A DNA stretch of 64,000 bases from Escherichia coli. GTDB taxonomy: Bacteria; Pseudomonadota; Gammaproteobacteria; Enterobacterales; Enterobacteriaceae. This document shows positions 22,364-62,540 of the stretch, piece by piece. The DNA is taken from NCBI RefSeq assembly GCF_050920415.1, contig NZ_CP169309.1, one strand, 5' to 3'. A program made the translations under genes and the position numbers. Under the pieces are notes generated by a model, which ran no database searches, was not told the origin of the DNA, and saw nothing but the letters and a program-made list of their open reading frames with translations. Positions within the stretch are counted from its first letter, which is position 1. Each line of letters begins with the position of its first letter.

Positions 22364-22383
22364 ATAAATGGTGTCCCCTGCAG
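22364..22383. repeat. prophage att core, torI-proximal copy (ATAAATGGTGTCCCCTGCAG)
   Basis: Exact 20-bp direct repeat of 62521-62540, which covers the 3' end of argW. Confidence 0.8.
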
Positions 22384-22456
22384 ACATCTACTTGAAGCGA
22401 CAGGGGATTGATTGGAATGGTGTTTTTTAGATGTGAGAAATATTTTACCCGCTATT

Positions 22457-22657
22457 TTACCCATTGGCGCGGCTTAAGAGCTTATTTTTGAATTCACAAT
22501 GGTCACGATATAACCATCTTGCTCGCCCGTGGATAACTTTGGCTTTTGGCAGGTCGCCGGACTTAATCCGGTCATAGATGAAGGTTTTACCAAAGCCAGT
22601 ATCGGCCATGATGAATTTCAAATCAACCAGTGAATCAGGCTGTAGTTCGTGTTGCAT
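22457..22657 (-). CDS. torI: TorI-like excisionase / recombination directionality factor (AlpA-Xis family)
   Basis: 66 aa; recognised as KplE1 TorI; sits at prophage end opposite the integrase. Confidence 0.8.
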   Translation of the reverse strand: MQHELQPDSLVDLKFIMADTGFGKTFIYDRIKSGDLPKAKVIHGRARWLYRDHCEFKNKLLSRANG

Positions 22658-22702
22658 GAGTGCTATCTCCGAATAGGGAATCGAACCTGCAAATCAGGCA
22701 AT

Positions 22703-22722
22703 AAAAAACCGCATTGATGCGG
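22703..22722 (-). terminator. intrinsic terminator at the end of the early-left operon, just upstream of torI
   Basis: Reverse strand: CCGCA-TCAA-TGCGG hairpin followed by TTTTTTAT. Confidence 0.5.
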
Positions 22723-22782
22723 CGATGGTAGGTCTGGATATCATTGAGAAATGAACAGGCCTCATCGAGTGTGAGGCTGTGG

Positions 22783-23127
22783 TTAGTCCTTGCGTAACTC
22801 GCTAATTCTTCTGTAAGTCTCTGGTGCTTTGTTTCCGTGTATCTTCATTTCAGACTTCAACAGAGCAACGAGGGAATCCCATTCGTTGAGGATGCCTTTG
22901 AATGCCGGAACGCGCTTTGCAACCTTGTTGAATGAATCTCTGATTTCTGGAATCTGCTCAACAAGTGCAACGCATCGTCTGAAATCGGCTGCGTCATGGG
23001 GAGCGCCGAAGCTATGACCATAGATATTCTTTTTCAGTCCACATGCGATTGAGGCAAGAGTTGCGCTACTGATGCCAACATCGCCAGTCGATTGCCATTT
23101 CAAAACCTTCATAGCCAAATCTGACAT
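22783..23127 (-). CDS. hypothetical early-left (ea-region) protein, 114 aa
   Basis: ORF in leftward operon; no family recognised. Confidence 0.45.
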   Translation of the reverse strand: MSDLAMKVLKWQSTGDVGISSATLASIACGLKKNIYGHSFGAPHDAADFRRCVALVEQIPEIRDSFNKVAKRVPAFKGILNEWDSLVALLKSEMKIHGNKAPETYRRISELRKD

Positions 23128-23227
23128 TTCTTGTCTCCATAAAACAAAACTCGCCGTAGCGAGTTCAGATAAAATAAATCCCCGCGAGTGCGAGGATTGT
23201 TATTCACCTTTAACGGCAAGTTGCAGG

Positions 23228-23896
23228 TTAGCCACGGTTTACCTCCTGAGGCGGTTCTGCTGCAAAATACGCAATACCTTTATCCCAGATGGATTTAATG
23301 GTCGTCCACGTGACTGGTACTTTAATTTCAATCCGCCCGCTACCGTCACAGGTATCGCAATCATCATCGCCAAAGCATTCCGGGCAGCTGATAAACGTAG
23401 TTTCTGAAAATTCACCGGATAGCGCACCCTTAGCGCCGTTCTCGGCTGTTAGTCTCTTCGGCACCATGACCCAACCATCCGGAGTTACCGGAGAGTTGCC
23501 CGACAGCTCGTTCAACTTGTAAGTTTGGCTTACAGGTTCGGCTTCCAGTTCTGCTATGCGTTTTTTTGCTGCTTCCAGCTCAACACGCAGCCTCCCAACC
23601 GTTAGTGCAATATTCTCGTTCTCCTGGTCGCGGTGTTTGATGTATTGCTGGTTTCTTTCCCGTTCATCCAGCAGCGCCTGCACTACTTCAGGGTTGAAAG
23701 CTGCGATATAACGAGCGTTGTTCTCTGCGTTTTTCTGTCCATCAAAGCCGGTCCATTTGATAACGTCTTCACATCGTTTATCACCGGGCGTATGCACCGC
23801 ATACGTACCAGTACCCGGTGAAATAAATGCGGACCATTCGCCTTGTGTTGCCTTTTTTGCTATCTCACGCAGTGCCTGATAGTCAATCTTGCTCAC
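23228..23896 (-). CDS. Ea22-like protein; start moved to GTG at 23896 preceded by AAGGAGG
   Basis: Coiled-coil middle, Cys-rich C-terminus; strong SD before GTG; longer ORF to 23989 overlaps the upstream gene. Confidence 0.45.
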   Translation of the reverse strand: MSKIDYQALREIAKKATQGEWSAFISPGTGTYAVHTPGDKRCEDVIKWTGFDGQKNAENNARYIAAFNPEVVQALLDERERNQQYIKHRDQENENIALTVGRLRVELEAAKKRIAELEAEPVSQTYKLNELSGNSPVTPDGWVMVPKRLTAENGAKGALSGEFSETTFISCPECFGDDDCDTCDGSGRIEIKVPVTWTTIKSIWDKGIAYFAAEPPQEVNRG

Positions 23897-24200
23897 TGGC
23901 TGCCTCCTTTGCTGGGCTTTCGAACTTCTGAGTGGTTGTATCAAACTCAAGCAACTTAACCACGTCATCAAACAGGACATAATCGCCATCAGAATCTTCA
24001 GTCATGTCAGCGCCACAATCCTGACCGAACGAGTCACAACCATCCATATCAAGCTCGTATCGCTTGAGTTTTGCGATATTTGATAAATTCAGCGCCAGTA
24101 CAGCAAGGTCATAAACCTCGTCAGCGGTATACCCGGCACCATGCCCATACATTTCAATGCGGGATATGATTTCTTCTACACGTTGTTTTGTGATCGTCAT
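23883..24200 (-). CDS. hypothetical acidic protein, 105 aa
   Basis: ORF translationally coupled to neighbours. Confidence 0.45.
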   Translation of the reverse strand: MTITKQRVEEIISRIEMYGHGAGYTADEVYDLAVLALNLSNIAKLKRYELDMDGCDSFGQDCGADMTEDSDGDYVLFDDVVKLLEFDTTTQKFESPAKEAASEQD

Positions 24201-24742
24201 TTTTGCTCACCTCCCTGTTCTTCCAGAAAAATACGCATAGCCTCAAGCATCTCTTCGGTGTCATACGGTGACAACTTGTCACGCAGGATGTGCTCAATGC
24301 TGTTAATGAACTTGCGGATTGCTTTGCGTTCAATTTCAGCCAGGAAAGCATCGGTGGCTGGGGTGTCTGATTGCAGAGACTTTGCGCGATAGTCATTCCA
24401 CCCTCTTGCATACATGGGATTAACTTGCACTCCATCTTTTACGCAATATGCCTGCCCTCCACGGTTGATAACATTGATTTCGTCCATAGCGCCAGCCTTC
24501 AGCCCCGCATTCTCCGCCGCCAGCGCCGAAAACTTCTCGTGTGCCAACTTAACAGCTGCATCAGCCTGCTTAATTGACTCAATCGCTTTCTGGTGGTCTT
24601 CGTACAGAGCCGAAATCTTGGCCTCCGCTTCAGCAAATTTACGCACCAGATATTCAGCGTTTGTTTCGTTAACCTTTAAATCTCGGGGGATGCATTTACC
24701 TTTCAGAAATCCATCCATCTCAATTAGTGACATTTGTTTCAT
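24197..24742 (-). CDS. hypothetical protein, 181 aa
   Basis: ORF in leftward operon. Confidence 0.45.
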
Positions 24743-24903
24743 TTCTTCCCACTCCGCAACATCGCGTTCAGATATTTGTTTTGATTCACTGAAGGAAAAG
24801 AATTTCTCTTAAGCAATTCCTCTCTCGATGGCATTGGCTTTACGCGTTGGCGAATAATCATTTCTGCCGGAAGAATTCCGGGATTGTATGCAAGTCCTCT
24901 CAT
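24739..24903 (-). CDS. small hypothetical protein, 54 aa
   Basis: ATG preceded by AAGAGG; ATGA overlap with downstream gene; below ORF-track size cut-off. Confidence 0.3.
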
Positions 24904-24919
24904 GGTAAATTCCTCTTTG

Positions 24920-25234
24920 TTAATTTATTCGTATGCCTGTTCTCTCTTCATCAAGTTTTTTTAGCTTGTATCGCATAGCTCTTACTGAATAAATTGAGCG
25001 GCAGGTTGCAATTGCTATTTCTTCTGCGGAGAACTTACCGAAAAGTGATACTTCGGCTCTTGTCCAGCGTCTTCCACGAAGTCGGCTAACAATGTCAGCT
25101 CCAATCCTTGTTGCTTTCGCCATTACTGCTTTTTCAGTCCTTTCCAGTTTTTCAGCGATAACTTCAACTGGCATTGTCGCCGCCACTTCGCGCAAGAAAT
25201 CGACTTCCCATTTCTCCCATGGAGTCTTTTTCAT
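24920..25234 (-). CDS. hypothetical protein, 104 aa
   Basis: ORF in leftward operon. Confidence 0.45.
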
Positions 25235-25245
25235 AGGCGATACCG

Positions 25246-25734
25246 TTATTTGATAAGAAGTGAAGGTTTCCCAACTTTGAGTTGAGCGCCGGGGATATTT
25301 ATTCCTGCTTTTAGTTGGTGTTTGATTGCCAGTTTGTCGGCTTTAATTGTTGTTTCAAACTCAACGTATTCTGGAGGAAGGGCGCTTGAGTCGATGATTT
25401 CTACAGTTTCTGACGGTTTGCGGATTGTTACCTGGTGAATACCTGCTCGAATCTTTTTCTTTCCAACCATTTCAAGCGATGACGCTATATACGTCATAAT
25501 GCTATCAATCTTATTTTGAATTACTGCTGCTCTTTCATTCAGTGACTTTGCCTCTTCCTTGAGGCGTTCAGCATAACCAGACTCATTTTTAATAATGGCA
25601 AGAAGTTGCTCTATTTTATCGGTAAATTCTCCTTCCATGCCTTCTATTGTGTCAGCAATCATCTCTGGTTCTAAATCTGAATCCATCAATTTTGCGTATT
25701 CATTGGCAATTTCATACAGTTTGCTCACTGGCAA
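25246..25734 (-). CDS. Gp157-like protein (often found with RecT/Erf recombinases)
   Basis: 162 aa; position immediately downstream of recT-like gene; family call from memory. Confidence 0.4.
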   Translation of the reverse strand: MPVSKLYEIANEYAKLMDSDLEPEMIADTIEGMEGEFTDKIEQLLAIIKNESGYAERLKEEAKSLNERAAVIQNKIDSIMTYIASSLEMVGKKKIRAGIHQVTIRKPSETVEIIDSSALPPEYVEFETTIKADKLAIKHQLKAGINIPGAQLKVGKPSLLIK

Positions 25735-26623
25735 CCTCCAGTTTCGCTTTGCATTCTATGTAAATGGCTTGTACGTTCTGCTGCAATTTCATTCCAGATG
25801 TCAGGCGATATGCTTCTGCAAAATATCGCTTCAAATCATCCATGTTTTCTGCCTGAGCCATTTCATCGCAAAGAAGTTGTGCTTTATCCATTATTTCCTG
25901 CTGGCGTTTCCGTTCATCTTCGCGGATATCTTCCTCTGATTTGTGCGGCATAACTGGTTCAGTCCATACACCTTCTTCTTCGTTTAGTACGTGAATAGCA
26001 CTATCAAGACGTGATGCCTTAGGCCAATACTTGCTTGCACGCTTCACGACCGTCTTTCGCGCCATCTCATTCCAGTGATTTACCCATGGTCCTTTATCGC
26101 TGAATGCCGCCTTGCTTGTTTTCCTTACAGCCTCAATTTCAGCAATACTCATCTCTTCCGTTAGATAATCACCTGCCGGCGTCTTAACTGTGCAGTAAAC
26201 GCCAACGATATCACCACGATCACCGAAGGCGTTGTATTTATGGGTTGGTGCTTTATCAAGCCCGTTTGACTCATAGGTATCGTTAGCATGAACAAGTTTT
26301 GCCTGACCCCATGAGATAACACCAGACTCCATTGCAATATGGAGCAATCCCATATAGCTGATATCAAGGCAAACCATGCCGTCGCGCGGAACCAGATAAG
26401 CCAGTTTGCTGGCCGGGTTTAAGGTGATGCCGATCGCCGCAACATTGATGATGGCGTTCTGTGCGCTGGTTGGATTTGCCAGTGCTGTTTTAGCCAGGTA
26501 ATCATTTTTCTGGAAATACTGAATTGCAAACTGGCTTTCCTTAGCCCATGTCACCGTCTGTTCAGTCAATGCTCCGCAGAATAACTGCTCCTGCTGTTTA
26601 ACGAATTCAACGATATTGCTCAT
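25712..26623 (-). CDS. RecT-family single-strand annealing recombinase
   Basis: 303 aa; motif GPWVNHWNEMARKTVVKRASKYWP resembles RecT GPWVTHWEEMAKKTAIRRLFKYLP. Confidence 0.7.
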   Translation of the reverse strand: MSNIVEFVKQQEQLFCGALTEQTVTWAKESQFAIQYFQKNDYLAKTALANPTSAQNAIINVAAIGITLNPASKLAYLVPRDGMVCLDISYMGLLHIAMESGVISWGQAKLVHANDTYESNGLDKAPTHKYNAFGDRGDIVGVYCTVKTPAGDYLTEEMSIAEIEAVRKTSKAAFSDKGPWVNHWNEMARKTVVKRASKYWPKASRLDSAIHVLNEEEGVWTEPVMPHKSEEDIREDERKRQQEIMDKAQLLCDEMAQAENMDDLKRYFAEAYRLTSGMKLQQNVQAIYIECKAKLEVASEQTV

Positions 26624-26931
26624 GCAGCTTCTCCATAAATATGTCTGCGTTTGAATATTGCGAAGGCATATTCAGCCTTAACTCTTTCGGTTATTGCATC
26701 CCAGAACCATTCAGCGGCTTTTTCCTGATAGTTACAGTCATCATCTTCCAGCCAGTCGATAGCGTCCTTAGTATGTTCATCTGGTTTATATGAGCGAAGC
26801 ATTTCGCTTATTGGGTCGCAACGTTTGCAGAGGCGATCAACTTCACTGTTGATTCGTTCGTAATCTTCATCAGTAAAACTTGCGATTATTTGCGATATTT
26901 CACGCTTATCATTCAGAGTCAGAATCATCAT
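26620..26931 (-). CDS. hypothetical protein at the gam/arf position, 103 aa
   Basis: ORF between kil-like and recT-like genes. Confidence 0.4.
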   Translation of the reverse strand: MMILTLNDKREISQIIASFTDEDYERINSEVDRLCKRCDPISEMLRSYKPDEHTKDAIDWLEDDDCNYQEKAAEWFWDAITERVKAEYAFAIFKRRHIYGEAA

Positions 26932-27012
26932 CTTTCTCCTGTTCTTTGTGCTGATTGAGCATTTTGTTCATCTGACGAATGAATTCTTCGTCTGACCAGT
27001 TATCTGTAAAAC

Positions 27013-27165
27013 TCATTTCCTGCGATACCACGGAAGATTGATGGCTGATTTCATCGCTTTATTTGCTTCAAGCCACATTTTTGAATCACCAATAAATCTG
27101 GCTATTACTGCTTTGTTCTGTGCAGCACGAAGCATCTGGTGATTAATGGCTATTTCATTGCGCAT
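27013..27165 (-). CDS. kil: Kil-like small protein (candidate FtsZ inhibitor)
   Basis: 50-aa ORF with GGAGG SD; ARFIGDSKMWLEA resembles remembered lambda Kil motif; below ORF-track cut-off. Confidence 0.4.
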   Translation of the reverse strand: MRNEIAINHQMLRAAQNKAVIARFIGDSKMWLEANKAMKSAINLPWYRRK

Positions 27166-27284
27166 AACGCCTCCATTTGTTTCTTTGCTGCTCTGATTAA
27201 TTGTTTAACTCGGCGTGATAATTCAGATTCGTGCGGGTAGAAAGCGGACATGACGCCGCTACCCGCGAGCTGAAAGTGCATCAT
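27150..27284 (-). CDS. CIII-like small protein (candidate FtsH/HflB inhibitor)
   Basis: 44-aa ORF with AAGGAG SD; central ESELSRRVKQLIRAAKK resembles lambda CIII helix ESLLERITRKL. Confidence 0.35.
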   Translation of the reverse strand: MMHFQLAGSGVMSAFYPHESELSRRVKQLIRAAKKQMEALCAMK

Positions 27285-27374
27285 GGGTAACTCCTTATAT
27301 TTGATTGCATAACGAAAACGCCTCGAGTGAAGCGTTATTGGTATGCGGTAAAGCCGCCAACAGGCGGCTATTTG

Positions 27375-27608
27375 CTATTGATTCTTTTCAAGAACATCAA
27401 TGATGTCGTCCGGGTTGTCTCCGTTGTCTTCACAAAATGCTTCGAATTCAGCCCATTTCGCGCTGATAAAATCAATTACTCTCATTAATTCGTATTCCAT
27501 ATTTTTCTCCAGACCAAAAGAATGCCGCCCATATAGAGCGGCAAGACTATCAAGGAATGATTTCCAATAATCAGAACAAGTCGGCTCCTGTTTAGTTACG
27601 AGCGACAT
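27375..27608 (-). CDS. hypothetical acidic protein, 77 aa (ral/ea10 position)
   Basis: ORF between N-like and cIII-like genes. Confidence 0.4.
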   Translation of the reverse strand: MSLVTKQEPTCSDYWKSFLDSLAALYGRHSFGLEKNMEYELMRVIDFISAKWAEFEAFCEDNGDNPDDIIDVLEKNQ

Positions 27609-27769
27609 TGCTCCGTGTATTCACTCGTTGGAATGAATACACAGTGCAGTGTTTATTAGTATGCCTGTCTTTTAACCACATCAGGCTCGGTGGTTCTCGT
27701 GTACCCCTACAGCGAGAAATCGGATAAACTCTATTCACCCCCTACAGAGAGAATGATGGAGATTCACCG

Positions 27770-28309
27770 ATGAGTAACTGGTGGCAGGAACTGTTACGTT
27801 TCTTCCTGCGTGGTCTTACGCTACAACAGTTAATTCATATGCTTATTATTTTAATTGCCCTGATAATAATCACCCCAGCATCAATTAAAGAGTGGGTAGA
27901 TATAAGGAACCCCGAAATACTTCCAGATCACTGGATGTATTACGCAATGCTTTTGTGTATCAGTTATGTTCTGAACAGGGTGATGGAGTTTATATTTCTG
28001 GCATCTTCAGACAGATATAAAAAATATCTCAGTAAGAGAGATGAGGATAAAGTAATTGTGGAGACTGAGCGCCTGTTCAATTCTCTGAGTATTCAGGAAA
28101 AAGAGGTTTTAGCATTTGCTGTTATGGCAAATAACAAAATCGTACTTAAGCACGGCGATCCGGTCGCTTTATCTCTTATGAGAAAAGGCCTTCTCCATCG
28201 CTCAGGTGTGACTTACAGCGCGTCAGGTAAAGAGAAATTTGTTATACCTGACGTCTGGTTCCATGAGTGTTATATGCGCTTTGCTGGTAAAGCTGATGAG
28301 CTAATTTAG
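27770..28309 (+). CDS. sieB: SieB-like superinfection exclusion membrane protein
   Basis: 179 aa; two N-terminal TM helices; adjacent to N; family assignment from memory. Confidence 0.5.
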   Translation: MSNWWQELLRFFLRGLTLQQLIHMLIILIALIIITPASIKEWVDIRNPEILPDHWMYYAMLLCISYVLNRVMEFIFLASSDRYKKYLSKRDEDKVIVETERLFNSLSIQEKEVLAFAVMANNKIVLKHGDPVALSLMRKGLLHRSGVTYSASGKEKFVIPDVWFHECYMRFAGKADELI

Positions 28310-28330
28310 TTCCTCGACGGCGGGGTATCG

Positions 28331-28714
28331 TCATCTCGCCGTCAGTTGTTTTGATTTCCGGTAGCCTGCTGCGTAAAGAGCTACATTTGGAAGACATACA
28401 CCAGTTTCTGGTTGCTTATGTCCAAACTCATTCGCGTACACAATGGCCGCTCTCTCCAGATTGCGTCTGTATTCTTTCTGTTGCCAGATCACGTCCTGTG
28501 CCATGAACTTAATTGGCTTAGCGTCTTCTATGCGCTCAGGCGTTTCGTGAGTACCTTTAGCCTGAATCTGCGCTCTGCTTAGAGTAGGGCGGTGTAATAC
28601 TTCTGAACTTATTGCTTCTTCGCGGGCCAGTACGCCGTTAGCTAATGCCTTTGCCTTTAAACGCTCACGACGACGAGAACGTGAATTGCCTTTGAACTGA
28701 GTTCTGCGTGTCAT
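28331..28714 (-). CDS. N-like antitermination protein (P22 gp24 type)
   Basis: Arg-rich N-terminus RRTQFKGNSRSRRRER; C-terminus LPNVALYAAGYRKSKQLTAR; downstream of pL/nutL. Confidence 0.7.
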   Translation of the reverse strand: MTRRTQFKGNSRSRRRERLKAKALANGVLAREEAISSEVLHRPTLSRAQIQAKGTHETPERIEDAKPIKFMAQDVIWQQKEYRRNLERAAIVYANEFGHKQPETGVCLPNVALYAAGYRKSKQLTAR

Positions 28715-28962: not shown

Positions 28963-29025
28963 AGTATCACCGCCAGTGGTATTTATGTCAACACCGCCAG
29001 AGATAATTTATCACCGCAGATGGTT
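28963..29025 (-). promoter_or_regulatory. pL promoter with OL1-OL2-OL3 operators
   Basis: TATCACCGCCAGTGGTA (28965-28981), CAACACCGCCAGAGATA (28989-29005), TATCACCGCAGATGGTT (29009-29025); reverse-strand -35 TTGACA and -10 GATACT. Confidence 0.75.
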
Positions 29026-29208: not shown

Positions 29209-29215
29209 TTGTGTG

Positions 29216-29587
29216 TTACTTAAGAACGAGTCCGTTTAAGGCATCAAGGATTTTGGAAACATAACTTCCAAAAATGTAGGCGCAAAATGCGAACACGAAA
29301 CTGACAACGACCGCAGATGCCTTGATGGTGATTTTTGCTGAGCTAATGCTTGTCTCAATACCTGACAGACGAGAATCTACAGATTTTATATCTGACTTTA
29401 CTTCAGCGAGATCGCGCTTGATGTATTCAACATCAGACTCTAGCTTTGCAACTCTAGCCTCAAGCATGTTACCTCCGCCGTTTCCTCCACCATGCCGTGA
29501 GTATGCATCATCAGTGGAATAGTGTCCAATTGGGCGAGATATGTTTTGATTTGGACGAAGCTGAGCAACCTTGTTATCTAAACTCAT
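29216..29587 (-). CDS. rex-slot cassette gene B: small protein with Gly-rich segment, coiled coil and C-terminal TM helix
   Basis: 123 aa; GGGNGGGN, heptad-like LEARVAKLESDVEYIKRDLAEVKSDIKSVDSRL, hydrophobic AVVVSFVFAFCAYIFGSYV; overlaps gene A by 14 bp; resembles XhlA-type architecture from memory. Confidence 0.55.
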   Translation of the reverse strand: MSLDNKVAQLRPNQNISRPIGHYSTDDAYSRHGGGNGGGNMLEARVAKLESDVEYIKRDLAEVKSDIKSVDSRLSGIETSISSAKITIKASAVVVSFVFAFCAYIFGSYVSKILDALNGLVLK

Positions 29588-30011
29588 CGCGAACTGATCC
29601 TGTTATCTTCACGTCAAAAAACGAACTTTTTACATCAATTACTTCGCCTTTATCAGGATTAACCAGTGATGCTCTAACTTCGAATATCCCAGGCTTGATA
29701 ATTTTCACCCTTGGGAAGTTAATTCTCATAGAAGTTGATACGATGGTTTCTCCATCGTTGGCTTCTGCTACCGTAAAAAACTTATGGTTGGAGTACAGTT
29801 TTGTGTCAATTGGTATCGGTATTTCTTGAGCATTGAAAACCTCAATGCCTATGGAATATTTTTTTGTAGCCTTAAGGCCGATAAAAAAAGCGCCAAATGA
29901 TAGATCCACTTCATGGGAGTCTTTATCCATTTCATAGATAAGAACTGGAGTTACTGGGTTGCCTTCATCCATCGCAATCGGAATGATATAAGAAATACGT
30001 TCTTTAATCAT
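29574..30011 (-). CDS. rex-slot cassette gene A: hypothetical soluble protein, 145 aa
   Basis: ATG 7 nt after cI stop on same strand; AT-rich; no family recognised. Confidence 0.55.
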   Translation of the reverse strand: MIKERISYIIPIAMDEGNPVTPVLIYEMDKDSHEVDLSFGAFFIGLKATKKYSIGIEVFNAQEIPIPIDTKLYSNHKFFTVAEANDGETIVSTSMRINFPRVKIIKPGIFEVRASLVNPDKGEVIDVKSSFFDVKITGSVRDEFR

Positions 30012-30018
30012 TTACGTG

Positions 30019-30735
<717 letters not shown>

Positions 30736-30742
30736 TTAAATC

Positions 30743-30806
30743 TATCACCGCAAGGGATAAATATCTAACACCGTGCGTGTTGACTGTTTTACCTCTAGCG
30801 GTGATA
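30743..30806. promoter_or_regulatory. OR3-OR2-OR1 operators with pRM/pR
   Basis: TATCACCGCAAGGGATA, TAACACCGTGCGTGTTG, TACCTCTAGCGGTGATA; -35 TTGACT and -10 GATAAT for pR. Confidence 0.8.
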
Positions 30807-30832: not shown

Positions 30833-31033
30833 ATGGAACAACGCATAACCCTGAAAGATTATGCAATGCGCTTTGGGCAAACCAAGACAGCTAAAGATCT
30901 CGGTGTATATCAAAGCGCGATCAACAAGGCCATTCATTCAGGCCGAAATATTTTTTTAACTATAAACGCTGATGGAAGCGTTTATGCGGAAGAGGTAAAG
31001 CCCTTCCCAAGTAACAAAAAAACAACTGCATAA
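30833..31033 (+). CDS. cro: Cro repressor, lambda type
   Basis: 66 aa, near-identical to remembered lambda Cro. Confidence 0.9.
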
Positions 31034-31468: not shown

Positions 31469-31630
31469 CAACATCCAACGAGGTAATTATATGCGAAAAA
31501 CGCAGGAAAATAAACGCGTTAATCACCGAAAAGATGTGCTACGTGACCAGTTTTATCAGGGGGTTAATCCAGCAATAGCTGTGCCACTGAGAGAAATACT
31601 TAACAGGTACAAAACTTCGGAGAAGTCAAA

Positions 31631-50627: not shown

Positions 50628-50629
50628 CC

Positions 50630-51322: not shown

Positions 51323-51331
51323 GGGGTAATC

Positions 51332-52738: not shown

Positions 52739-54741
52739 TGAAAGTAACTGCAAACGGTAAGACATTTACCTTCCCTGATGGTACGAGCACGGAAGATATT
52801 GGCACCGCCATTGATGAGTATTTTGCTGGTCAGTCAGCACCAACACAACAAGGTGTTCAGCAATCGCCAGCAGACAACTCACTTGCATCAGGATATGCAC
52901 AGCTTGCCACTCAGCAGAAGGAAGGACTAGATCGCTCTGCTGAGCAAGGGGCTGTTTTAGGTGCTGCAATGCGCGATGCCGTTACCGGTGAAAGCCGAAT
53001 GACACCAGAAATGGAGAGACTGCAAAATGTTGGGTCTGCTCCAGAGCTTAATAGCTTAAGCACTGATGCGCTGCGTGCTGGATTGGGGCAGCTATTTGGT
53101 TCCGACGCTTCACAGGAGAAAATACTGCAAAGTATTGGCGGGAAAATCCGGAAGGATGAGAAGGGAAATTCCATAGTCACCCTTCCTTCAGGGGAATATG
53201 CACTTAACAAGCCTGGTTTGTCACCGCAGGATATAACGTCATTCTTGGCAAATGCTCTTGCATTCACTCCAGCAGGTAGAGCTGCGTCTGTTGTAGGTGC
53301 AACACTAAAATCAGGCGCTACTGATTTAGCTTTACAGGGTGCCACTAAGATCGCTGGCGGTGAGAATGTTAATCCAGTTCAAACTGCAATTTCTGCTGGT
53401 CTTGGTGGGGTACTGAAGGGTGTAGAAAACACCGCAAGCGCAGTGTCTCGTTCTGCTATGGGTAAGATTGCTCCTGAAAAACAAGCTCAGATTGACTTTG
53501 CCAAGCAGAACAACTTGCCACTGATGACAACAGATCTTGTGGAACCGGGAACAAATATTGGTAAGCAAGCACGAGCTATGGCTGAGCGAATCCCAATAGC
53601 CGGAACAGGTGGGATAAGAAATGCACAGCAAAAGGCCAGGGAAGATTTAGTTAGAACTTTTAGCGATAATGTTGGTGGAATATCTGACGCACAACTTTAC
53701 CAATCAGCTACTCGTGGTCAGCAGCAATTTATTCAGGCTGCTGGCAAGCGGTACGACAGGATCATCAGTTTGATGGGGGATACTCCTGTTGACATCACTG
53801 GAACAGTGAAAGCAATTGATGAGCAGATTTCCAAGTTAACTCGCCCAGGAGTATCGCAAGATCGCTCAGCTGTTTCTGTCCTTCAACAGTTTAGAAATGA
53901 CATCACCAGCGGTCCAAATAACCTGCAATTAGCTAGAGAAAACCGTACAAACTTACGTAAGCGCTTTATGGCAGCACCTGACGAGGTCGATAGAGATACG
54001 CTGGAGAAAGCTGCGCAGTCTGTTTATAACGCATACACAACAGACATGAAAAAAGCGGTTGGCGCAAAACTAGGTGCGAAGGAAGCGCAAAACATGTCGC
54101 GTGTTGATCGTTCTTGGGCAAAGTTCAACGACATGATGAGCAATACACGTGTCCAAAAAGCTATTCAGAGTGGTAAAACAACGCCAGAAGATGTCACTAA
54201 ACTAGTATTCAGCCAAAGCCCAGCGGAAAGGGCGCAACTTTATCGATTGCTTGATGATAGTGGGCGTCAAAATGCTAGAGCAGCACTTGTTCAGCGTGCA
54301 ATGGATAAGGCGACAAGCGATTCAGGAAAGCTTAGCGTTGAGAAGTTTATTAATGAAATGAAAAGGAATCGGAAGCAGGCTGAGACGTTCTTCAGAGGAG
54401 AGCATGGGAAACAGCTTGATGGGATAATGAAATATCTTGATTCCACTAGACAGGCAGCTACTGCTGCCGCAAGCCCACTAACAGGGCAAATGGTAGCTGG
54501 TCCAGCAGCGCTGATAACAGCTCTTGCGTCTGTTACAAATCCAATGTTTGCAAAAGTTGCGGCAGTTGGAGCTGGTATCGGTATGGCTGGCAGGGGCTAT
54601 GAGTCACGCGCGATGAGGAACGCATTACTAAAGTTAGCAAACACGCCAAAAGGAAGTACTGCTTATGATAGAGCGATCAGACGGGTATCTGAAACTCTTA
54701 CACCTCTAATTCAGGCTTCAAGTGAGAAAGCCCAGCAGTAA
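52735..54741 (+). CDS. ejection protein (P22 gp16 type)
   Basis: 668 aa; synteny and size. Confidence 0.65.
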   Translation: MMKVTANGKTFTFPDGTSTEDIGTAIDEYFAGQSAPTQQGVQQSPADNSLASGYAQLATQQKEGLDRSAEQGAVLGAAMRDAVTGESRMTPEMERLQNVGSAPELNSLSTDALRAGLGQLFGSDASQEKILQSIGGKIRKDEKGNSIVTLPSGEYALNKPGLSPQDITSFLANALAFTPAGRAASVVGATLKSGATDLALQGATKIAGGENVNPVQTAISAGLGGVLKGVENTASAVSRSAMGKIAPEKQAQIDFAKQNNLPLMTTDLVEPGTNIGKQARAMAERIPIAGTGGIRNAQQKAREDLVRTFSDNVGGISDAQLYQSATRGQQQFIQAAGKRYDRIISLMGDTPVDITGTVKAIDEQISKLTRPGVSQDRSAVSVLQQFRNDITSGPNNLQLARENRTNLRKRFMAAPDEVDRDTLEKAAQSVYNAYTTDMKKAVGAKLGAKEAQNMSRVDRSWAKFNDMMSNTRVQKAIQSGKTTPEDVTKLVFSQSPAERAQLYRLLDDSGRQNARAALVQRAMDKATSDSGKLSVEKFINEMKRNRKQAETFFRGEHGKQLDGIMKYLDSTRQAATAAASPLTGQMVAGPAALITALASVTNPMFAKVAAVGAGIGMAGRGYESRAMRNALLKLANTPKGSTAYDRAIRRVSETLTPLIQASSEKAQQ

Positions 54742-54749: not shown

Positions 54750-55070
54750 TTAGCGGTTGATGGTTGCTTTTTTCGGGTCATACCATCTCGGCCATTCTTT
54801 CAGGAATGGGAATGAGTCGGGAGCGTGGTTCTTTTTGTACGATTTAAGCAGCCTTAACCGCTCTATCGCACACTCATAAACCTCTTGTTGCCCTGTAGTC
54901 ATCTCGGTCCATGAAAGGTGATCCATTGATAAGACAACGTTTTCAGCTTCTTTTATGAGGGCGTTTTTATTTCTCACCGCAGCAGCATGGCTGACAGAGC
55001 AATCCTGCCATATTCTTAAAAGCCAAATAGCTAAGCAGATAAAAAAAATGGTAGATAGCGATATATACAC
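54750..55070 (-). CDS. small membrane protein, N-terminal TM helix (GTG start after AAGGAGG)
   Basis: 106 aa from GTG at 55070 with strong SD 5 nt upstream; the longer ORF to 55286 overlaps the divergent gene. Confidence 0.4.
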   Translation of the reverse strand: MYISLSTIFFICLAIWLLRIWQDCSVSHAAAVRNKNALIKEAENVVLSMDHLSWTEMTTGQQEVYECAIERLRLLKSYKKNHAPDSFPFLKEWPRWYDPKKATINR

Positions 55071-55100
55071 ACCAACCTCCTTAGTTTTGAGCAGGATACC

Positions 55101-55466
55101 ATGAAAAAAGTTAACATTGGAAACGTACCAAAGATGCTCGTACCGCTCTTTGAGAGCGGTACAATTGTGTTTTGTAGAGACTTTCCAGAATGGCAACGCC
55201 TGCATCAAAAACTTGGCGTTGACGTGCATGACTCGGACGCCAACGGAGCGTCTCATACAATGAGTAGCGAGAATGGTGTTTTGCATGTGATAGGCGTGTT
55301 CAATGGCAAACTATCTACTATTGCCCATGAGTGCGCTCACATGGCATTCGATATCTGCTCAAGGGTAGGTGTTGATGTTGAACCAGGAAGAGCCAACGAG
55401 ACTTACTGCTACTTAATGAGCAGGCTTGTTGAGTTCTGCGAGCGACATATCAAAAAGCCGGAGTGA
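55101..55466 (+). CDS. small protein with HExxH motif (HECAH), candidate minimal zinc metallopeptidase
   Basis: 121 aa; motif read from translation; divergent from the membrane-protein gene. Confidence 0.45.
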   Translation: MKKVNIGNVPKMLVPLFESGTIVFCRDFPEWQRLHQKLGVDVHDSDANGASHTMSSENGVLHVIGVFNGKLSTIAHECAHMAFDICSRVGVDVEPGRANETYCYLMSRLVEFCERHIKKPE

Positions 55467-55479: not shown

Positions 55480-55660
55480 TTACTTTTTGCTGTCTGGAGT
55501 TCGCTTATCCAATACCCAGCCATGACCTGGCTTTGTTGTTGGTGGAAGCCTTTCGTTGTCCTTGACGGTGGCAAAATTGTCTTTCTTACCGCCGCGTGGG
55601 CCAACTTCTTGGTATATTCCGCCGTTTTTTCCTGTGTTTTCACCTGGTTTTTTCGCCATG
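55480..55660 (-). CDS. small hydrophilic protein, 60 aa
   Basis: ATG with GAGG-like SD; MAKKPGENTGKNGGIYQEVGPRGGKK. Confidence 0.35.
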
Positions 55661-55758
55661 ATATACCTCAACATACACCCGTTATTGGGCGATTAAATAT
55701 TGATCTCATTTTATAAGTAGTCAATATGGCCCAGGTAAATGCAAAAATTAACTCACCG

Positions 55759-56010
55759 TCAGGTGGTTTTTTTGTACAAATCCTTCAGCGTATCAAACAC
55801 CATCTTCTTAACAAGATCTGACTGCTCATCAGCGAGTCGTTCTGCATCGTCACGATATCCAGTCACAGGCGATGGTTTTGATAGAGCATCTTGGACGATT
55901 TGCAACAATTCTGAGTTCATTGATCTACCATTTGACTCTGCTCTGTATTTTAATTTTTCTCTTACTTCCAAAGGCATGCGGAAGTTAAAGTGCGGATCGT
56001 CTCTAGCCAT
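55759..56010 (-). CDS. mnt: Mnt repressor (ribbon-helix-helix)
   Basis: 83 aa, near-identical to remembered P22 Mnt. Confidence 0.85.
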   Translation of the reverse strand: MARDDPHFNFRMPLEVREKLKYRAESNGRSMNSELLQIVQDALSKPSPVTGYRDDAERLADEQSDLVKKMVFDTLKDLYKKTT

Positions 56011-56396: not shown

Positions 56397-56537
56397 ATGA
56401 AGGTAAAAACACTGCGTATGCCAGAGAAGTTAGAAAAAATCCTTGAAGAGAAAGCAAAGGAAGAGTGTCGCTCATTTAGCGCAGAAGTAATTAAACGGGT
56501 GATGGACAGCCTGAAGAGAGATGGGGTGGCGATATGA
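56397..56537 (+). CDS. Arc-like ribbon-helix-helix repressor
   Basis: 46-aa ORF with GGAGG SD; divergent from mnt; upstream of the ant-position gene. Confidence 0.55.
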   Translation: MKVKTLRMPEKLEKILEEKAKEECRSFSAEVIKRVMDSLKRDGVAI

Positions 56538-57439
56538 ATAAAGAAGATGGCTTTAAGTGCTCCTTCTGCTGAAAGCCTCAGCATGAATGTGCAATGTTGA
56601 TTCGCGCTAAAGCAGAGATATTTATCTGTAATGGTTGTGTATCTCTTTGCGTTGAAGCGATGGGGAAAGAGTTAAATTCTAGAAAAACAATGTTAGATGT
56701 GAGCATAAAACAGTGAAGCCCCAACTGCGGTAACAGTCAGGGCTTCGGTATCAACAAAACTTACGAGGTATTATTGATATGTCAAGCTTAGCAAAGTCAA
56801 CTGTAAATTGCACTAATAGCATCATCATTTCTGACGTCAAGATTCATATGGATTCAGAGGGTCGTTACTCGCTTAATGACCTTCATGTAGCGTCTGGAAA
56901 GGAGGAAAAACATCAGCCAGCTTTCTTCATGCGTAGAAATGAAACTATTGAATTGATTAATGAAATTTTTAATTCTGCGGATATGCAGAATAAGAATCCC
57001 GTCATTTCTAAGAAAGGTAGATATGGTGGAACATACGTGTGCAAGGAGCTTGTTTACTCCTACGCCATGTGGATTAGCGCAGCATTTGCGCTGAAGGTTA
57101 TCCGCGCATATGACGCAATGGTTACTGCCACACAAGAGAGGAAGGCTATTGGCGGTAAAACTTCAGTAGCTGAACGCACGCCGCTACGCGATGCAGTAAA
57201 CATGCTGGTAGGAAAGAAAGGACTTCGCTATGACGATGCATACAATATGGTTCATCAGCGTTTTGGTATTGACAGCATTGATGAACTTTCAATTGAACAA
57301 ATCCCGCTGGCCGTAGAGTACATCCACAGGGTAGTGCTTGAAGGTGAGTAGACTGGCCCCCTGAATCTCCAGACAACCAGTATCACTTAAATAAGTGATA
57401 GTCTTAATACTAGTTTTTAGACTAGTCATTGGAGAACAG

Positions 57440-57805
57440 ATGATTGATGTCTTAGGGCCGGAGAAACGCAGACGGCGTACCACACAGGAAAAGATCGCAA
57501 TTGTTCAGCAGAGCTTTGAACCGGGGATGACGGTCTCCCTCGTTGCCCGGCAACATGGTGTAGCAGCCAGCCAGTTATTTCTCTGGCGTAAGCAATACCA
57601 GGAAGGAAGTCTTACTGCTGTCGCCGCCGGAGAACAGGTTGTTCCTGCCTCTGAACTTGCTGCCGCCATGAAGCAGATTAAAGAACTCCAGCGCCTGCTC
57701 GGCAAGAAAACGATGGAAAATGAACTCCTCAAAGAAGCCGTTGAATATGGACGGGCAAAAAAGTGGATAGCGCACGCGCCCTTATTGCCCGGGGATGGGG
57801 AGTAA
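57440..57805 (+). CDS. insC: IS2 transposase OrfA
   Basis: [26 protein letters not shown] recognised. Confidence 0.9.
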
Positions 57806-58668
57806 GCTTAGTCAGCCGTTGTCTCCGGGTGTCGCGTGCGCAGTTGCACGTCATTCTCAGACGAACCGATGACTGGATGGATGGCCGCCGCAGTCGTCAC
57901 ACTGATGATACGGATGTGCTTCTCCGTATACACCATGTTATCGGAGAGCTGCCCACGTATGGTTATCGTCGGGTATGGGCGCTGCTTCGCAGACAGGCAG
58001 AACTTGATGGTATGCCTGCGATCAATGCCAAACGTGTTTACCGGATCATGCGCCAGAATGCGCTGTTGCTTGAGCGAAAACCTGCTGTACCGCCATCGAA
58101 ACGGGCACATACAGGCAGAGTGGCCGTGAAAGAAAGCAATCAGCGATGGTGCTCTGACGGGTTCGAGTTCTGCTGTGATAACGGAGAGAGACTGCGTGTC
58201 ACGTTCGCGCTGGACTGCTGTGATCGTGAGGCACTGCACTGGGCGGTGACTACTGGCGGCTTCAACAGTGAAACAGTACAGGACGTCATGCTGGGAGCGG
58301 TGGAACGCCGCTTCGGCGACGATCTTCCGTCGTCTCCAGTGGAGTGGCTGACGGATAATGGTTCATGCTACCGGGCTAATGAAACACGCCAGTTCGCCCG
58401 GATGTTGGGACTTGAACCGAAGAACACGGCGGTGCGGAGTCCGGAGAGTAACGGAATAGCAGAGAGCTTCGTGAAAACGATAAAGCGTGACTACATCAGT
58501 ATCATGCCCAAACCAGACGGGTTAACGGCAGCAAAGAACCTTGCAGAGGCGTTCGAGCATTATAACGAATGGCATCCGCATAGTGCGCTGGGTTATCGCT
58601 CGCCACGGGAATATCTGCGGCAGCGGGCTTGTAATGGGTTAAGTGATAACAGATGTCTGGAAATATAG
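57763..58668 (+). CDS. insD: IS2 transposase OrfB (DDE domain)
   Basis: 301 aa recognised as IS2 InsD. Confidence 0.9.
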
Positions 58669-59105
58669 GGGCAAATCCAGTGAGTTCATTGGCAAACAAG
58701 AGAAGAAAACCAACGAGCTTTCTGCAAAAGAAGCAAACAGCCTTGTATGGTTATGGGATTATGCCAACCGCTCACAGGCATTATTCCGCGAATTGTATCC
58801 GGCATTAAAACAAATTCAATCGAACTATTCCGGCAGATGTCATGACTGCGGTTATGAGTTCTCCCGTATTATCGATATAGCGAGAGACGTTTTAATTAAT
58901 CACACACGAGATGTTGATATCAATGAGCCAGACGGACCAACGAATCTTTCCGCATGGATGAGACTTAAGAATAAAGAATTACCTCCTTCAGTACATAATT
59001 ACTGACAGATAACCAACGCAACGACCCAGCTTCGGCTGGGTTTTTTTATGCCCAAAATTCACCGTAGCCATGCTGCGGCGATTCCTTGTATCTGGAGCAA
59101 ATTAA

Positions 59106-61063
59106 ATGACAGACATTACAGCCAATGTTGTAGTGAGCATGCCTTCGCAACTCTTTACTATGGCCCGCTCTTTTAAAGCCGTAGCTAATGGTAAAATTTA
59201 TATCGGTAAAATTGACACTGACCCGGTAAATCCTGAAAACCAGATTCAGGTTTATGTAGAGAACGAAGACGGCTCTCACGTTCCTGTTTCGCAACCAATC
59301 ATCATTAACGCTGCTGGATATCCGGTATATAACGGACAGATTGCCAAATTCGTAACTGTGCAAGGCCATTCTATGGCTGTATATGATGCGTATGGTGCAC
59401 AGCAGTTCTATTTTCCTAATGTGCTGAAGTATGACCCTGATCAGTTTAAGCAGCAGTTAGAAAGCGATGCTGATGGAATGGGAGATGCATTAGTTACAGT
59501 TAAACAACCGTACACTGGTGCTACTTCTATTTCACAGCACATTAAAAATTCACAGGCTATAAGTGTTATTGATTTTGGCGCTACAATTGACGGAACGCTT
59601 CACCCTTTAAGCGAGATATTTTCAACACTATCAGCCGCTCAGATGGTATATCCATTTGTTTCATCTCTATCTCAATCTGTTGATTATGCTGCGCTTCAGT
59701 CCGCATGTAACACGGGAAAAACAGTGCTTATTCCAAAGGGAACTGGTTACTATAATTCAACTATTTTTCTGAAAAACTCCGTCAGGATTGTTGGAGAGGG
59801 AACTGATACAATAAATAGAGCGCAATCATTTATGTCTATTGTTGGTAATATTTCAGCCTTTGCTTTAGATCAAGGTGATTCACTATCGACAAAAATGATT
59901 CAGATTTTTATTGATGGTCTTTATATTTTCTATGATCCAGGAACCACACCAACGAATCCTGAAGATGATGGTGGGAAAATTGCATTTAATTTCTACTCGA
60001 CAATTCCAAATTCAACAAGCTTGGAAATGTCTGAAATTAAAAACTGTACAGTTCATGGTGCATGGTCATGCTTTAATGATCAGACTGGCACATACTTGAC
60101 AAAACTTACGAATGTGTGGGCCAGAAACTGCCATAATGGTTTTACAAAAGGAACTGGCACTACCATTCTGATGGAAAGATGTTATACATCTGGATGTATA
60201 TCACCATATCAGTTTGGTTCTGTCTTTGCAGCTACAATGATTAACTGTGCCATGGATGGATCAAATATTTCGTTAAACGCAGGTTCGCTTGGTGGGGCTG
60301 GCGTTCATGTTCTTAACACACATAGTTTTAACATTATTGGTTTTGATGCGGAGGGTAACACCATCTCTACAGATGGTTATGGAGAGGCAGCACTATTCCA
60401 TTTCGAAAATAGTAGTGGTGGCATTTCTGGCCTGACTGCACATCAGAACAGCATGCGAAGTGTTGCGCCAAGTGATGCTGGTGTAGTTTCCTACATCAGG
60501 GCGTCAGGTAGCAGCGATGTAAAATTGAGTCATCAGAAGATGATTTATCTGACACCAACACAGTTGCATATACTGGGTCTGGGTATCCCATCATGCTACA
60601 TGCAACTGACACAGCTAAAATAAGCGTCTTTAATAGCAGATTCAGGGCGACTACCACTGGTACCCCTGTCTTAAGTACGCTAAGTACTGGTGATGTATCA
60701 TGGTATGACTGCCCTAAAAAAACAGGACTTATCGTAGATGGTTATTCACAAATAACATCTAAGGAAGGATTGCAAACATCATGCTTCTATACCAGTAAAG
60801 GCTCTACTGCTGTTGCTGAAAATACTCCGACAACACTTTTCTCTCTACCAGATTCGCAAGGTACTTACATTATTAGCGTATGGGGGGCTGGAAGCGGAGA
60901 AAATTACGCATCTACACAACTGGCAATGTATGATGGAGATAAGCTAATTCTTGTTGCGTTAAAAATAGCAGCATTTCTTAGTTTTTCAGCAACAGGGAGA
61001 ATTGTAACCATTACAAGCCAGGGCACAGGCACTTTTAATTGGACCTACACAAAAATAGGTTAA
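59106..61063 (+). pseudogene. tailspike (P22 gp9-type head-binding N-terminus) split into two overlapping ORFs, 59106-60623 and 60593-61063; apparent frameshift
   Basis: N-terminus [34 protein letters not shown] matches P22 tailspike head-binding domain; second frame is open from 60512 with no SD-preceded start. Confidence 0.6.
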
Positions 61064-61206
61064 TATATTTTGAACTATCTACGTTATTTAGTTCGTTAAG
61101 TAGACATAGGGCGGTTATCTCTGTTGCTGGTGAGAAAAAAATGAGAAACACAAAGCTTTGCACTGTATTGCAAGGCTTTGCGCTCTTCGATAGTGGTTAA
61201 GGTGGA

Positions 61207-62400
61207 TCACTCCACCTTTTCATCAATCCAATCCGCCCACCACTGCATCATTTCTCTGCGCTTATCGAGATACTGAGCATGGTTGTAAATTCCGCGCACA
61301 GATCCGCCGTTGGCATGTGCCAGTTGCACTTCAATAGCATCAGCAGGCCATTCGTGCTCGTTCATAATCGTGCTGAATTCATGCCTGAATCCGTGACCGC
61401 TTTCCAGACCTTCATAGCCGATTTGTTTGATCACAAGCAGTACCGCGTTCTCGCAGATTGGCTTCTTCTTATCGTTGCGCCCGGCAAAAACAAACTCTGA
61501 TACTGGTTTGGTGATTGAGCTTAGCGTAGTGAGAAGTTCAACCACCTGGTCCGACATCGGGACAACATGAATCTTGCGTCCCTTCATCACACTGGCGTCG
61601 ATAGTGATAATCCTGTTTTCAAAATCGACGTTCTTCCATTGCATGGAACGAAGCTCTTTCGTTCTTAGGGCTGTGTAGCGTAAAACTTTGGTCGCAATGA
61701 GCGATACGATACTTCCTGAAAATGTTGCCAGTGCTTTGTTGAATGCAGGGATCTGGTCTGCAGGAAGAAACGGGAAGTTCTTCTTGCGGTATCCCTTCAT
61801 GGCGTCAGCAAGGTCAGGTGCCGGGTTATATTTAGCCCTTCCGGTGACAATAGCGTAACGGAAAACCTCGCCGCATCTTCTGCGTGCTTTGTTGGCTCGC
61901 TCCATTGCACCGCGATCTTCAAATCTGCGGATTACTTCCAGAAGTTGCATCGGCTCAATATCCTGAATTTCAAGGCTGCCGATGATAGGTAAAATGTCGT
62001 CATCAAACATTTTGGCAAGTTCAGTTGCATAGCCTACTGACCAGACTTGCTTCTTGTGCTCGTACCATTCCTTGTAAATCGCACTAAAGGAATTGTTGTT
62101 AGACGAAGCCTTTTTCGCCTTTACCGGATCGATACCAACCGAGATGTCTTTCCTCGCAGTCCATGCTTTATCCCTTGCCTCCTGCAAAGTCATAAGCGGA
62201 TATTTTCCGACGGTCAGGATTTTCTCCTTACCGTCAATCTTGTAGCGAAGCTGCCATACCTTTTTCCCTGACACAGGGACATAAAGGTACAGGCCATTAC
62301 CATCGAGAAGGCGGTATGGTTTTTCTTTCGGCTTTGCTGCTTCAATCTGCTTAACGGTGAGCATGGGTAAAAATCCGGTGGGTAAAATTATTTTATCCAC
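61207..62400 (-). CDS. intS: tyrosine integrase (IntS / KplE1-Sf6 type); likely start is the internal ATG at 62364
   Basis: C-terminal catalytic signature R..HGFRHEFST..Y; adjacent to argW. Confidence 0.9.
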   Translation of the reverse strand: MDKIILPTGFLPMLTVKQIEAAKPKEKPYRLLDGNGLYLYVPVSGKKVWQLRYKIDGKEKILTVGKYPLMTLQEARDKAWTARKDISVGIDPVKAKKASSNNNSFSAIYKEWYEHKKQVWSVGYATELAKMFDDDILPIIGSLEIQDIEPMQLLEVIRRFEDRGAMERANKARRRCGEVFRYAIVTGRAKYNPAPDLADAMKGYRKKNFPFLPADQIPAFNKALATFSGSIVSLIATKVLRYTALRTKELRSMQWKNVDFENRIITIDASVMKGRKIHVVPMSDQVVELLTTLSSITKPVSEFVFAGRNDKKKPICENAVLLVIKQIGYEGLESGHGFRHEFSTIMNEHEWPADAIEVQLAHANGGSVRGIYNHAQYLDKRREMMQWWADWIDEKVE

Positions 62401-62520
62401 TTTTTACCCGTCATGGTGTGCGGCTGTCAACGATCTGACGCGAACCATGACGAACTGTGAATCTACGGAAGGCTTGATATTCAGGGGATTTTGCGGACTG
62501 GTACGGATGGGAGCGAACTG

Positions 62521-62540
62521 ATAAATGGTGTCCCCTGCAG
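62521..62540. repeat. prophage att core, integrase/argW-proximal copy
   Basis: Exact repeat of 22364-22383. Confidence 0.8.

Follow-up and report, generated by a model that had tools for sequence, protein, structure and literature searches.

The window analysed here, a 64,000-nt stretch of Escherichia coli DNA (contig NZ_CP169309.1 of RefSeq assembly GCF_050920415.1), contains a prophage inserted at the tRNA gene argW. This prophage is probably a near-complete temperate P22-like phage (Lederbergvirus), integrated by IntS at the 3' end of argW and at an early stage of decay, and not a domesticated element. It appears to have been recently acquired, or recently lost from a sister strain, and to stand at the first step of its decay. 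A preliminary description of the same sequence recognised the argW prophage, its mosaic make-up and three lesions, all of which are borne out below, and suggested that the element is domesticated and kept for functions expressed in the lysogen; this last proposal we do not follow, given an empty site in a strain with identical flanks, the freshness of the lesions and the apparently intact state of genes that kill the host.

Boundaries of the prophage and the empty argW site

The prophage corresponds to positions 22363-62540 of the window, its ends being set by a 21-nt direct repeat, one copy of which overlaps argW:

22363-22383, unstranded: torI-side att site (attL), 21-nt core GATAAATGGTGTCCCCTGCAG; direct repeat, with one copy in the empty-site strain
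62520-62540, unstranded: intS-side att site (attR), same core GATAAATGGTGTCCCCTGCAG; overlaps the 3' end of argW
62526-62600, minus strand: argW, tRNA-Arg(CCT); ARAGORN, and Rfam tRNA at 63.4 bits

The core at 22363-22383 aligns to the attP core of phage Sf6 (Sf6 18099-18114). The argW gene, which is the sole tRNA gene reported by ARAGORN in the window, stays intact, as the phage-borne core regenerates the 3' end of the tRNA.

The left flank (1-22362) matches the complete genome of strain MFDS1022581 (NZ_CP169399.1) at 100.0% identity without gaps over 22,362 nt (BLAST), and the right flank (62520-64000; 1,481 nt) is likewise 100% identical to that genome with zero gaps. MFDS1022581 has a single copy of the 21-mer, and there cscB is followed directly by argW and yfdC, which is to say that it carries the empty site. 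Because one copy of the core lies between gapless, fully identical flanks, the insertion can be given as exactly 40,157 bp; and because the site is empty in a strain with 23.8 kb of 100%-identical flanking sequence, the prophage is polymorphic in a near-clonal lineage and not fixed. Besides this perfect match, the flank 1-22362 is about 99.2% identical to many other strains. Beside the att site it contains csc sucrose genes (cscK-like, 19700-20614; cscB-like, 20686-21933), whereas in K-12 this position is occupied by dsdC and dsdX; dsdA, emrY, evgS and oxc lie further upstream. The same order, csc genes-torI...intS-argW-yfdC, is seen in two other E. coli genomes.

The integration module

The two genes of the KplE1-type integration module lie at opposite ends of the prophage, as had been noted in the preliminary description, and both are near-identical to their K-12 counterparts:

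22457-22657, minus strand: torI, recombination directionality factor (RDF; excisionase); 66 of 66 residues identical to K-12 TorI, and 100% identity to Sf6 gp18 and the N7 excisionase
61207-62364, minus strand: intS, tyrosine integrase; 383 of 385 residues identical to K-12 IntS

The split is not peculiar to this prophage, since it is the published norm for KplE1, HK620, Sf6 and CUS-3. According to Panis et al., the module is "highly conserved" among argW (pro)phages, KplE1, HK620, Sf6 and CUS-3 included; they also report that transcription of int and of the RDF gene is uncoupled and that the intS promoter overlaps the att region (PMC2951348, PMC3509656). In the circular form of the phage, attP would lie between intS and torI, so that integration would place intS at the tRNA end and torI at the other. 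In the Sf6 record the annotated attP core has int (gene 16) on one side and the TorI homologue (gene 18) on the other; both ends of the prophage align there, and the att arms have 97-98.6% DNA identity to Sf6. A promoter scan found a promoter-like site for intS at 62414-62387, inside the att arm, from which intS would be driven by its own promoter; torI is presumably transcribed separately upon induction, as shown for KplE1.

A further feature of the torI end is a 16-nt exact piece of argW (GGAATCGAACCTGCAA), the sequence that comes next after the att core at 62540-62555, which is repeated at 22677-22692, just upstream of torI and 293 bp inside the prophage (chance expectation, about 2e-5 matches). 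Two consecutive pieces of the 3' half of the tRNA flank torI on its two sides, and the 16-nt copy is kept in Sf6 (within the annotated pI promoter), N7, K-12 KplE1 and the prophages of AHM8C212RI and EP91A. This arrangement suggests that torI may have entered an attP whose segment of tRNA homology was older and longer.

Three lesions in ant, rusA and the tailspike gene

The three lesions of the preliminary description, which had called them apparently inactivating, are all present in the sequence. Each does inactivate its gene, but inactivation of the phage is to be expected from the tailspike lesion only, and not from those in ant and rusA:

56779-59005, plus strand: ant, interrupted by IS2; N-terminal part 56779-57348, C-terminal part 58685-59005
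57349-58679, plus strand: IS2, 1331 bp, with imperfect terminal inverted repeats and two overlapping transposase open reading frames (ORFs)
36785-37146, plus strand: pseudogene of the Holliday junction resolvase rusA, one nucleotide being lost past codon 22 (at about 36849)
59106-61063, plus strand: tailspike gene with a 1-nt deletion at 60519, one T being absent (TT to T)

The insertion sequence (IS) in ant is 99.5% identical to annotated IS2 copies, its second ORF, TnpB, matches NF006918 ("IS2 transposase TnpB") with 725 bits against a cut-off of 597, and the 5-bp target duplication GTGAG is present at 57344-57348 and 58680-58684. The sequence on either side matches P22 ant, with 88% amino acid identity in the C-terminal half. 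Removal of IS2 and one copy of the duplication yields an ORF of 297 amino acids (phrog_2812, E 2.5e-113), and this reconstructed ORF is the true ant, as it stands directly downstream of arc and sar.

In rusA one A is absent (AA to A) by comparison with N7 rusA (120 aa) and EP91A. In the tailspike gene, the deletion changes GATGTTAAAA to GATGTAAAA, and the frameshifted product has 473 authentic residues, 469 of them identical to the tailspike of ETEC1730, followed by 32 out-of-frame residues and a stop, with loss of the last 179 residues. The ETEC1730 tailspike is an intact coding sequence (CDS) of 652 aa, 97.5% identical, and the extra T is present in all six independent relatives (ETEC1730, FT130, PEC422 and three IMG/VR contigs). 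The head-binding domain PF09008 is recognised in the intact 97.5%-identical homologue (E 7.3e-66), the frameshift of the window falling at codon 474, and matches in the PDB are to the N-termini of the Sf6 and P22 tailspikes. Programmed or transcriptional slippage that would rescue the tailspike was considered and rejected, as known slippery motifs are absent from the site (GTAAAATTG), which offers nothing more than an A4 run.

To judge from the sequence, the lesions are fresh and minimal: past both deletions the original frame is open to the normal stop, and IS2 keeps its 5-bp duplication. The ant gene is dispensable for growth of P22, and the nin region, junction resolvase included, is dispensable in lambdoid phages, the nin5 deletion being viable. 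A precedent for an IS in an accessory gene is found in Sf6, an isolated phage whose annotated genome has IS911 in a ninG-like gene. The phage should thus tolerate both ant::IS2 and the rusA frameshift. The tailspike of P22, on the other hand, needs its C-terminal part for trimer formation, and mutants in P22 gene 9 yield heads that are stable and filled with DNA but not infectious. Hence the tailspike lesion alone, if real, should abolish infectivity, in agreement with the preliminary description: functional trimeric spikes would not assemble, and while excision, replication, packaging and lysis would still be expected on SOS induction, the lysing cells should release tailspike-less, non-infectious heads. 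The functions that make induction harmful to the host are untouched by the three lesions.

The remainder of the prophage appears intact

Insertions and deletions (indels) were listed against eight relatives. Where coding sequence could be set against relatives of at least about 90% identity, the rusA and tailspike deletions were the only unpaired 1-nt indels inside it; the others lie between genes or at their junctions (31164, 38075, 39977, 47904, 51331). The two deletions and IS2 aside, every gene comparable to close relatives is full length, including the holin, endolysin, Rz/Rz1, replication, terminase and head genes. The int and torI genes are full length too. The lesions found are three, all of them point-like. 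About 5 kb lacks a close relative among the compared loci (22781-23936, 27168-28340, 29211-30018, 31439-32022 and others) and was judged by intact ORFs only.

Gene-by-gene identities, from alignment to lambda, Sf6, P22 and N7 and to two E. coli genomes that have related argW prophages, uphold the mosaic of lambda and P22 parts that was proposed in the preliminary description, with morphogenesis and immI regions like those of P22. The morphogenesis genes form a single block:

40772-54741, plus strand: terS, terL, portal, scaffold, coat, small ORF, gp4, gp10, gp26, gp14, gp7, gp20 and gp16; P22 order, with P22, Sf6 or N7 lengths and identities
47406-47906, plus strand: gp4, intact by translation

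All twelve genes of the P22 cluster gp3-2-1-8-5-4-10-26-14-7-20-16, together with the small ORF, are present in order and at the length of their homologues. The head genes are 58-100% identical to P22, and the segment from terS to coat is P22-type, with amino acid identities to P22 of 93% (terL), 85% (scaffold), 77% (portal) and 73% (coat); the genes from gp10 to gp7 share 97-100% identity with those of Sf6, and gp16 matches that of N7 at 100%. Against AHM8C212RI, EP91A and N7 there are no unpaired indels in the coding sequence of the cluster. The small ORF between coat and gp4 (phrog_1175) contains a perfect (CAGAGC)n hexanucleotide repeat at 47313-47358, the length of which varies, EP91A having 6 nt more, in frame.

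Searches for the same prophage gave no second instance. None of 5,426 complete E. coli genomes carries it, and none covers at least 80% of either half (best, 76%); among phage records the best coverage was 53% of one half, and the exact mosaic was not found. No record of the truncated tailspike protein was found, IMG/VR lacks the frameshift allele, its three hits all having the wild-type T, and the IS2-ant junction is absent from IMG/VR and from the 5,426 E. coli genomes, so these genome, protein and IMG/VR searches gave no independent confirmation of the frameshifts.

Damage of a similar kind is seen in related prophages. In the argW relative of EP91A the tailspike is truncated and adjoins an IS1 remnant (39720-41663 of its locus). 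In PEC422 (4107-7401 of its locus) a tailspike of the same type is interrupted by an IS3-family insertion, at about 45 nt from where the frameshift of the window lies. AHM8C212RI has a gp16 pseudogene (13284-14558), and in VE-T10, whose prophage occupies a site other than argW, ant and tailspike are separated by an IS3-family element (5489-6717).

Alternative readings of the lesions

The rusA and tailspike deletions might be sequencing or assembly errors in a fully functional prophage which tolerates the insertion in ant and forms plaques on induction. This is unlikely, although several observations would suit it: the frameshifted tailspike allele is unique to the window, with the T in six of six relatives and no truncated protein on record, the frames past the deletions are without secondary damage, all else looks intact, and the annotated genome of Sf6 itself holds IS911. 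What argues against error is that the flanks equal an independent complete genome over 23.8 kb, gapless and mismatch-free, which suggests an accurate assembly; that neither deletion lies in a long homopolymer (TT to T; AA to A); that long alignments of coding sequence with relatives are otherwise free of unpaired indels; and that genuine, comparable decay occurs in the argW relatives of AHM8C212RI, EP91A and PEC422. Domestication, in which a prophage that cannot spread is kept by selection for its lysogen-expressed genes (immunity, sieB and the cassette past cI), we consider improbable. The cI and cro genes, the operators, the sieB-like gene and the two-gene cassette are indeed intact, loss of the antirepressor could stabilise lysogeny, and decayed P22-like prophages are common at argW, K-12 KplE1 being one example. 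However, the prophage is absent from the strain with 100%-identical flanks, its lesions are fresh single events without deletion of any module, and the tailspike lesion has no obvious benefit for the host. A domesticated element would moreover be expected to have lost some lytic or structural genes, so that the retention, at full length, of all the genes for lysis, replication and packaging, which are of no use or even a danger to the host, speaks against this reading.

It is also conceivable, at very long odds, that the ant-tailspike segment of argW P22-like prophages is a mutational hot spot or comes under selection again and again, and that its lesions are not random decay, in view of the independent disruptions of this segment in EP91A, PEC422 and VE-T10. 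These relatives are, however, a handful picked by similarity search, without a denominator; AHM8C212RI is damaged elsewhere, in gp16; the types of event differ; and there is no known mechanism by which loss of the tailspike would help the host. Equally far-fetched is the notion that hosts repeatedly select lysogens lacking the antirepressor, the O-antigen-cleaving spike or both, as an early directed step of taming.

Some points weigh against the reading that we prefer, of a near-complete phage in early decay. The two 1-nt deletions could be assembly errors, and a tailspike allele found nowhere else is compatible with a private recent mutation as well as with an error. Zero differences over 23.8 kb of flank bound the divergence time only loosely. 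Subtle defects may be present in the roughly 5 kb without close relatives, and IS2 might be polar on transcription of the tailspike gene. Two single-base differences, a substitution in the operator OR1 and the loss of one base from the stem of the tR' hairpin relative to relatives, might likewise have an effect.

Beyond annotation the prophage matters little, being one more mosaic among the well-studied argW P22-like phages, with the expected KplE1-type module. Its architecture and lesions hold nothing surprising, and what is new is the exact mosaic. It has modest value in that it shows the very first step of decay cleanly, with three fresh and individually reversible lesions, and the lysogen and the empty-site strain with identical flanks are a convenient natural pair, if the strains are available.

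Early, immunity and replication genes

The left part of the prophage carries the following features:

22783-27284, minus strand: early-left accessory and recombination genes, ea-type ORFs included; PHROG matches
25246-25734, minus strand: Mu Gam-like gene; PHROG
25712-26623, minus strand: RecT; PHROG
27013-27165, minus strand: kil; 100% identical to Sf6
27150-27284, minus strand: cIII-like ORF
27770-28309, plus strand: sieB-like superinfection exclusion gene; phrog_1301, E 3.9e-94, 49% identity to P22 SieB
28331-28714, minus strand: N-like antiterminator with an arginine-rich N-terminus; phrog_271, E 9.5e-39
28965-29025, unstranded: OL1-OL3; exact lambda matches at 28965, 28989 and 29009
29216-30011, minus strand: two-gene cassette (145 aa and 123 aa) with no predicted function; phrog_5893 and phrog_6136, both "unknown function"
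30019-30732, minus strand: cI, lambda-type; 235 of 237 residues identical, changes T3A and K71N
30743-30806, unstranded: OR3/OR2/OR1; OR3 and OR2 exact to lambda, OR1 with one change
30833-31033, plus strand: cro; 64 of 66 residues identical to lambda, changes A36S and K39N
31172-31468, plus strand: cII-like gene; PHROG
31631-32407, plus strand: O-like initiator, with three 21-nt iterons at 31920-31985; PHROG
32515-34395, plus strand: primase/helicase; PHROG

Lysogeny would be maintained by the lambda-type cI acting on the lambda-type OL and OR. In OR1 (30790-30806) there is a single G-to-A change from lambda near the centre (TACCTCTAGCGGTGATA), the other five operators being exact. The preliminary description had called the lambda modules identical to those of lambda; cI, cro, Q, S and R are lambda-like, with 97-100% amino acid identity, but their DNA is only 93-98% identical.

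Beginning 8 nt past the cI stop, the cassette at 29216-30011 stands where lambda has rexAB. The rexAB genes are absent, and the genes downstream of cI show no similarity to them. As it follows directly on cI, the cassette should be expressed in the lysogen. Its 123-aa protein has a coiled coil and a C-terminal membrane helix, and its DNA is about 77% identical to a cassette in the Salmonella phages epsilon34 (genes 44/45) and g341c. Searches of the cassette against PADLOC, NCBIfam and Pfam gave no significant match, with a weak XhlA hit only; nor was there an NCBIfam match for the sieB-like gene or anything significant in PADLOC for the accessory ORFs. Assignment of the cassette or the accessory ORFs to known defence systems was accordingly dropped. 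The cassette is a candidate exclusion system.

The nin region, Q and lysis genes

Downstream of the replication genes lie the nin region, Q and the lysis cassette:

34455-37331, plus strand: nin region, with ninB, a DNA adenine methyltransferase, ninE, ninF, a KilAC antirepressor-like gene, DUF1364/HNH, the rusA pseudogene and ninH
37328-37951, plus strand: late antiterminator Q; 207 of 207 residues identical to lambda Q
38384-38707, plus strand: S; 99% amino acid identity to lambda
38691-39167, plus strand: R; 98% amino acid identity to lambda
39164-39601, plus strand: Rz with embedded Rz1; Rz Sf6/P22-like, 94% identical to Sf6

The attribution of the whole nin region and of S-R-Rz to lambda in the preliminary description holds in part. 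Of the nin genes, ninB, ninE and ninF alone resemble those of lambda (NinB is 99% identical), the methyltransferase, KilAC, DUF1364/HNH, rusA and ninH genes being as in N7; S and R are of lambda type, but Rz is Sf6/P22-like. Rz1 is intact by translation and has a lipoprotein signal. The KilAC antirepressor-like gene (35776-36498, plus strand; phrog_63 "anti-repressor Ant", E 1e-97) is intact, so that an antirepressor-type function may persist despite ant::IS2.

Past Q, at the position of P22 tR' (about 38058-38090), a terminator-like hairpin lacks one C in its 3' arm by comparison with N7, EP91A, AHM8C212RI and P22, AGCTCGGGGCT becoming AGCTGGGGCT. In the aligned sequences the missing C shortens the stem, and late transcription might be leakier for it.

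The immI region

Between the morphogenesis cluster and the interrupted ant gene are:

54750-55070, minus strand: small membrane ORF; PHROG
55101-55466, plus strand: HExxH ORF (HECAH) of 121 aa, on the strand of the late operon; phrog_1365
55480-55674, minus strand: orf59a-like gene; PHROG
55759-56010, minus strand: mnt; 94% identical to P22
56034-56297, minus strand: second ribbon-helix-helix (RHH), Mnt-like gene; PHROG
56397-56537, plus strand: arc-like gene, 46 aa; PHROG
56712-56777, minus strand: sar RNA; Rfam RF00262, 62.8 bits against a gathering score of 43

The immI region has 96.7% DNA identity to P22 13827-14789 (963 nt), mnt and orf59a included. P22 has one mnt only, whereas the window has two Mnt-like RHH genes in tandem upstream of the arc-like gene. 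The P22-type immI (mnt, arc, sar, ant) would add a second layer of control, with its antirepressor gene disrupted by IS2. The HExxH ORF is intact in P22 as well (13861-14226), with one amino acid difference, at a place where the P22 RefSeq record has no CDS. The Rfam scan of the window detected only the tRNA and sar, other phage RNAs having no hit at the gathering threshold. Assignment of 54750-55286 (minus strand) as sieA was rejected: only the promoter and first codons of P22 sieA are conserved, and the coding part matches ORF14 of N7, a membrane protein of 106 aa.

Comparison with known phages and prophages

Those defining features of Lederbergvirus, of the argW module, of lambda immunity and of IS2 that can be read from sequence were all found, with the exception of rexAB. 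The likeness to lambda is in cI (99% amino acid identity), cro (97%), Q (100%), S (99%), R (98%), NinB (99%) and the five exact operators of six; N, cII, the replication genes, Rz, most of nin, all structural genes and int/xis are not lambda-like, and lambda rexAB is replaced by the unrelated two-gene cassette. P22 is resembled in the morphogenesis cluster, immI, the sar RNA and the C-terminal half of ant. In P22, however, int and xis are adjacent, the integration site is another one, and the annotated attP core lies beside int on the side away from xis; P22 also has c2 immunity, a different receptor domain in its tailspike, and the gtrABC conversion genes, which the prophage lacks.

Closest in overall type are the argW Lederbergvirus phages Sf6, HK620, CUS-3, IME10 and N7, which share the site, the IntS/TorI module, the P22 gene order and a tailspike with a P22-type head-binding domain; Sf6 and N7 have 97-98% DNA identity to the prophage at both ends. 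The prophage differs from this group in having no O-antigen modification gene between tailspike and int, and its tailspike receptor domain is common only to a few prophages of pig enterotoxigenic E. coli (ETEC) and to FT130. Its immunity is lambda-type, whereas the records of N7 and Sf6 annotate a P22 C2-type repressor and 434-like operators, respectively, and from terS to coat it is P22-type, unlike Sf6. KplE1 (CPS-53) of K-12 occupies the same argW site, with intS by the tRNA, torI at the far end and the intS promoter in the att arm (PMC2951348); its TorI is identical and its IntS 99% identical, with about 96% DNA identity. Yet KplE1 is a 10-kb remnant without cI, lysis or head genes, whereas the prophage described here is, at 40 kb, essentially complete.

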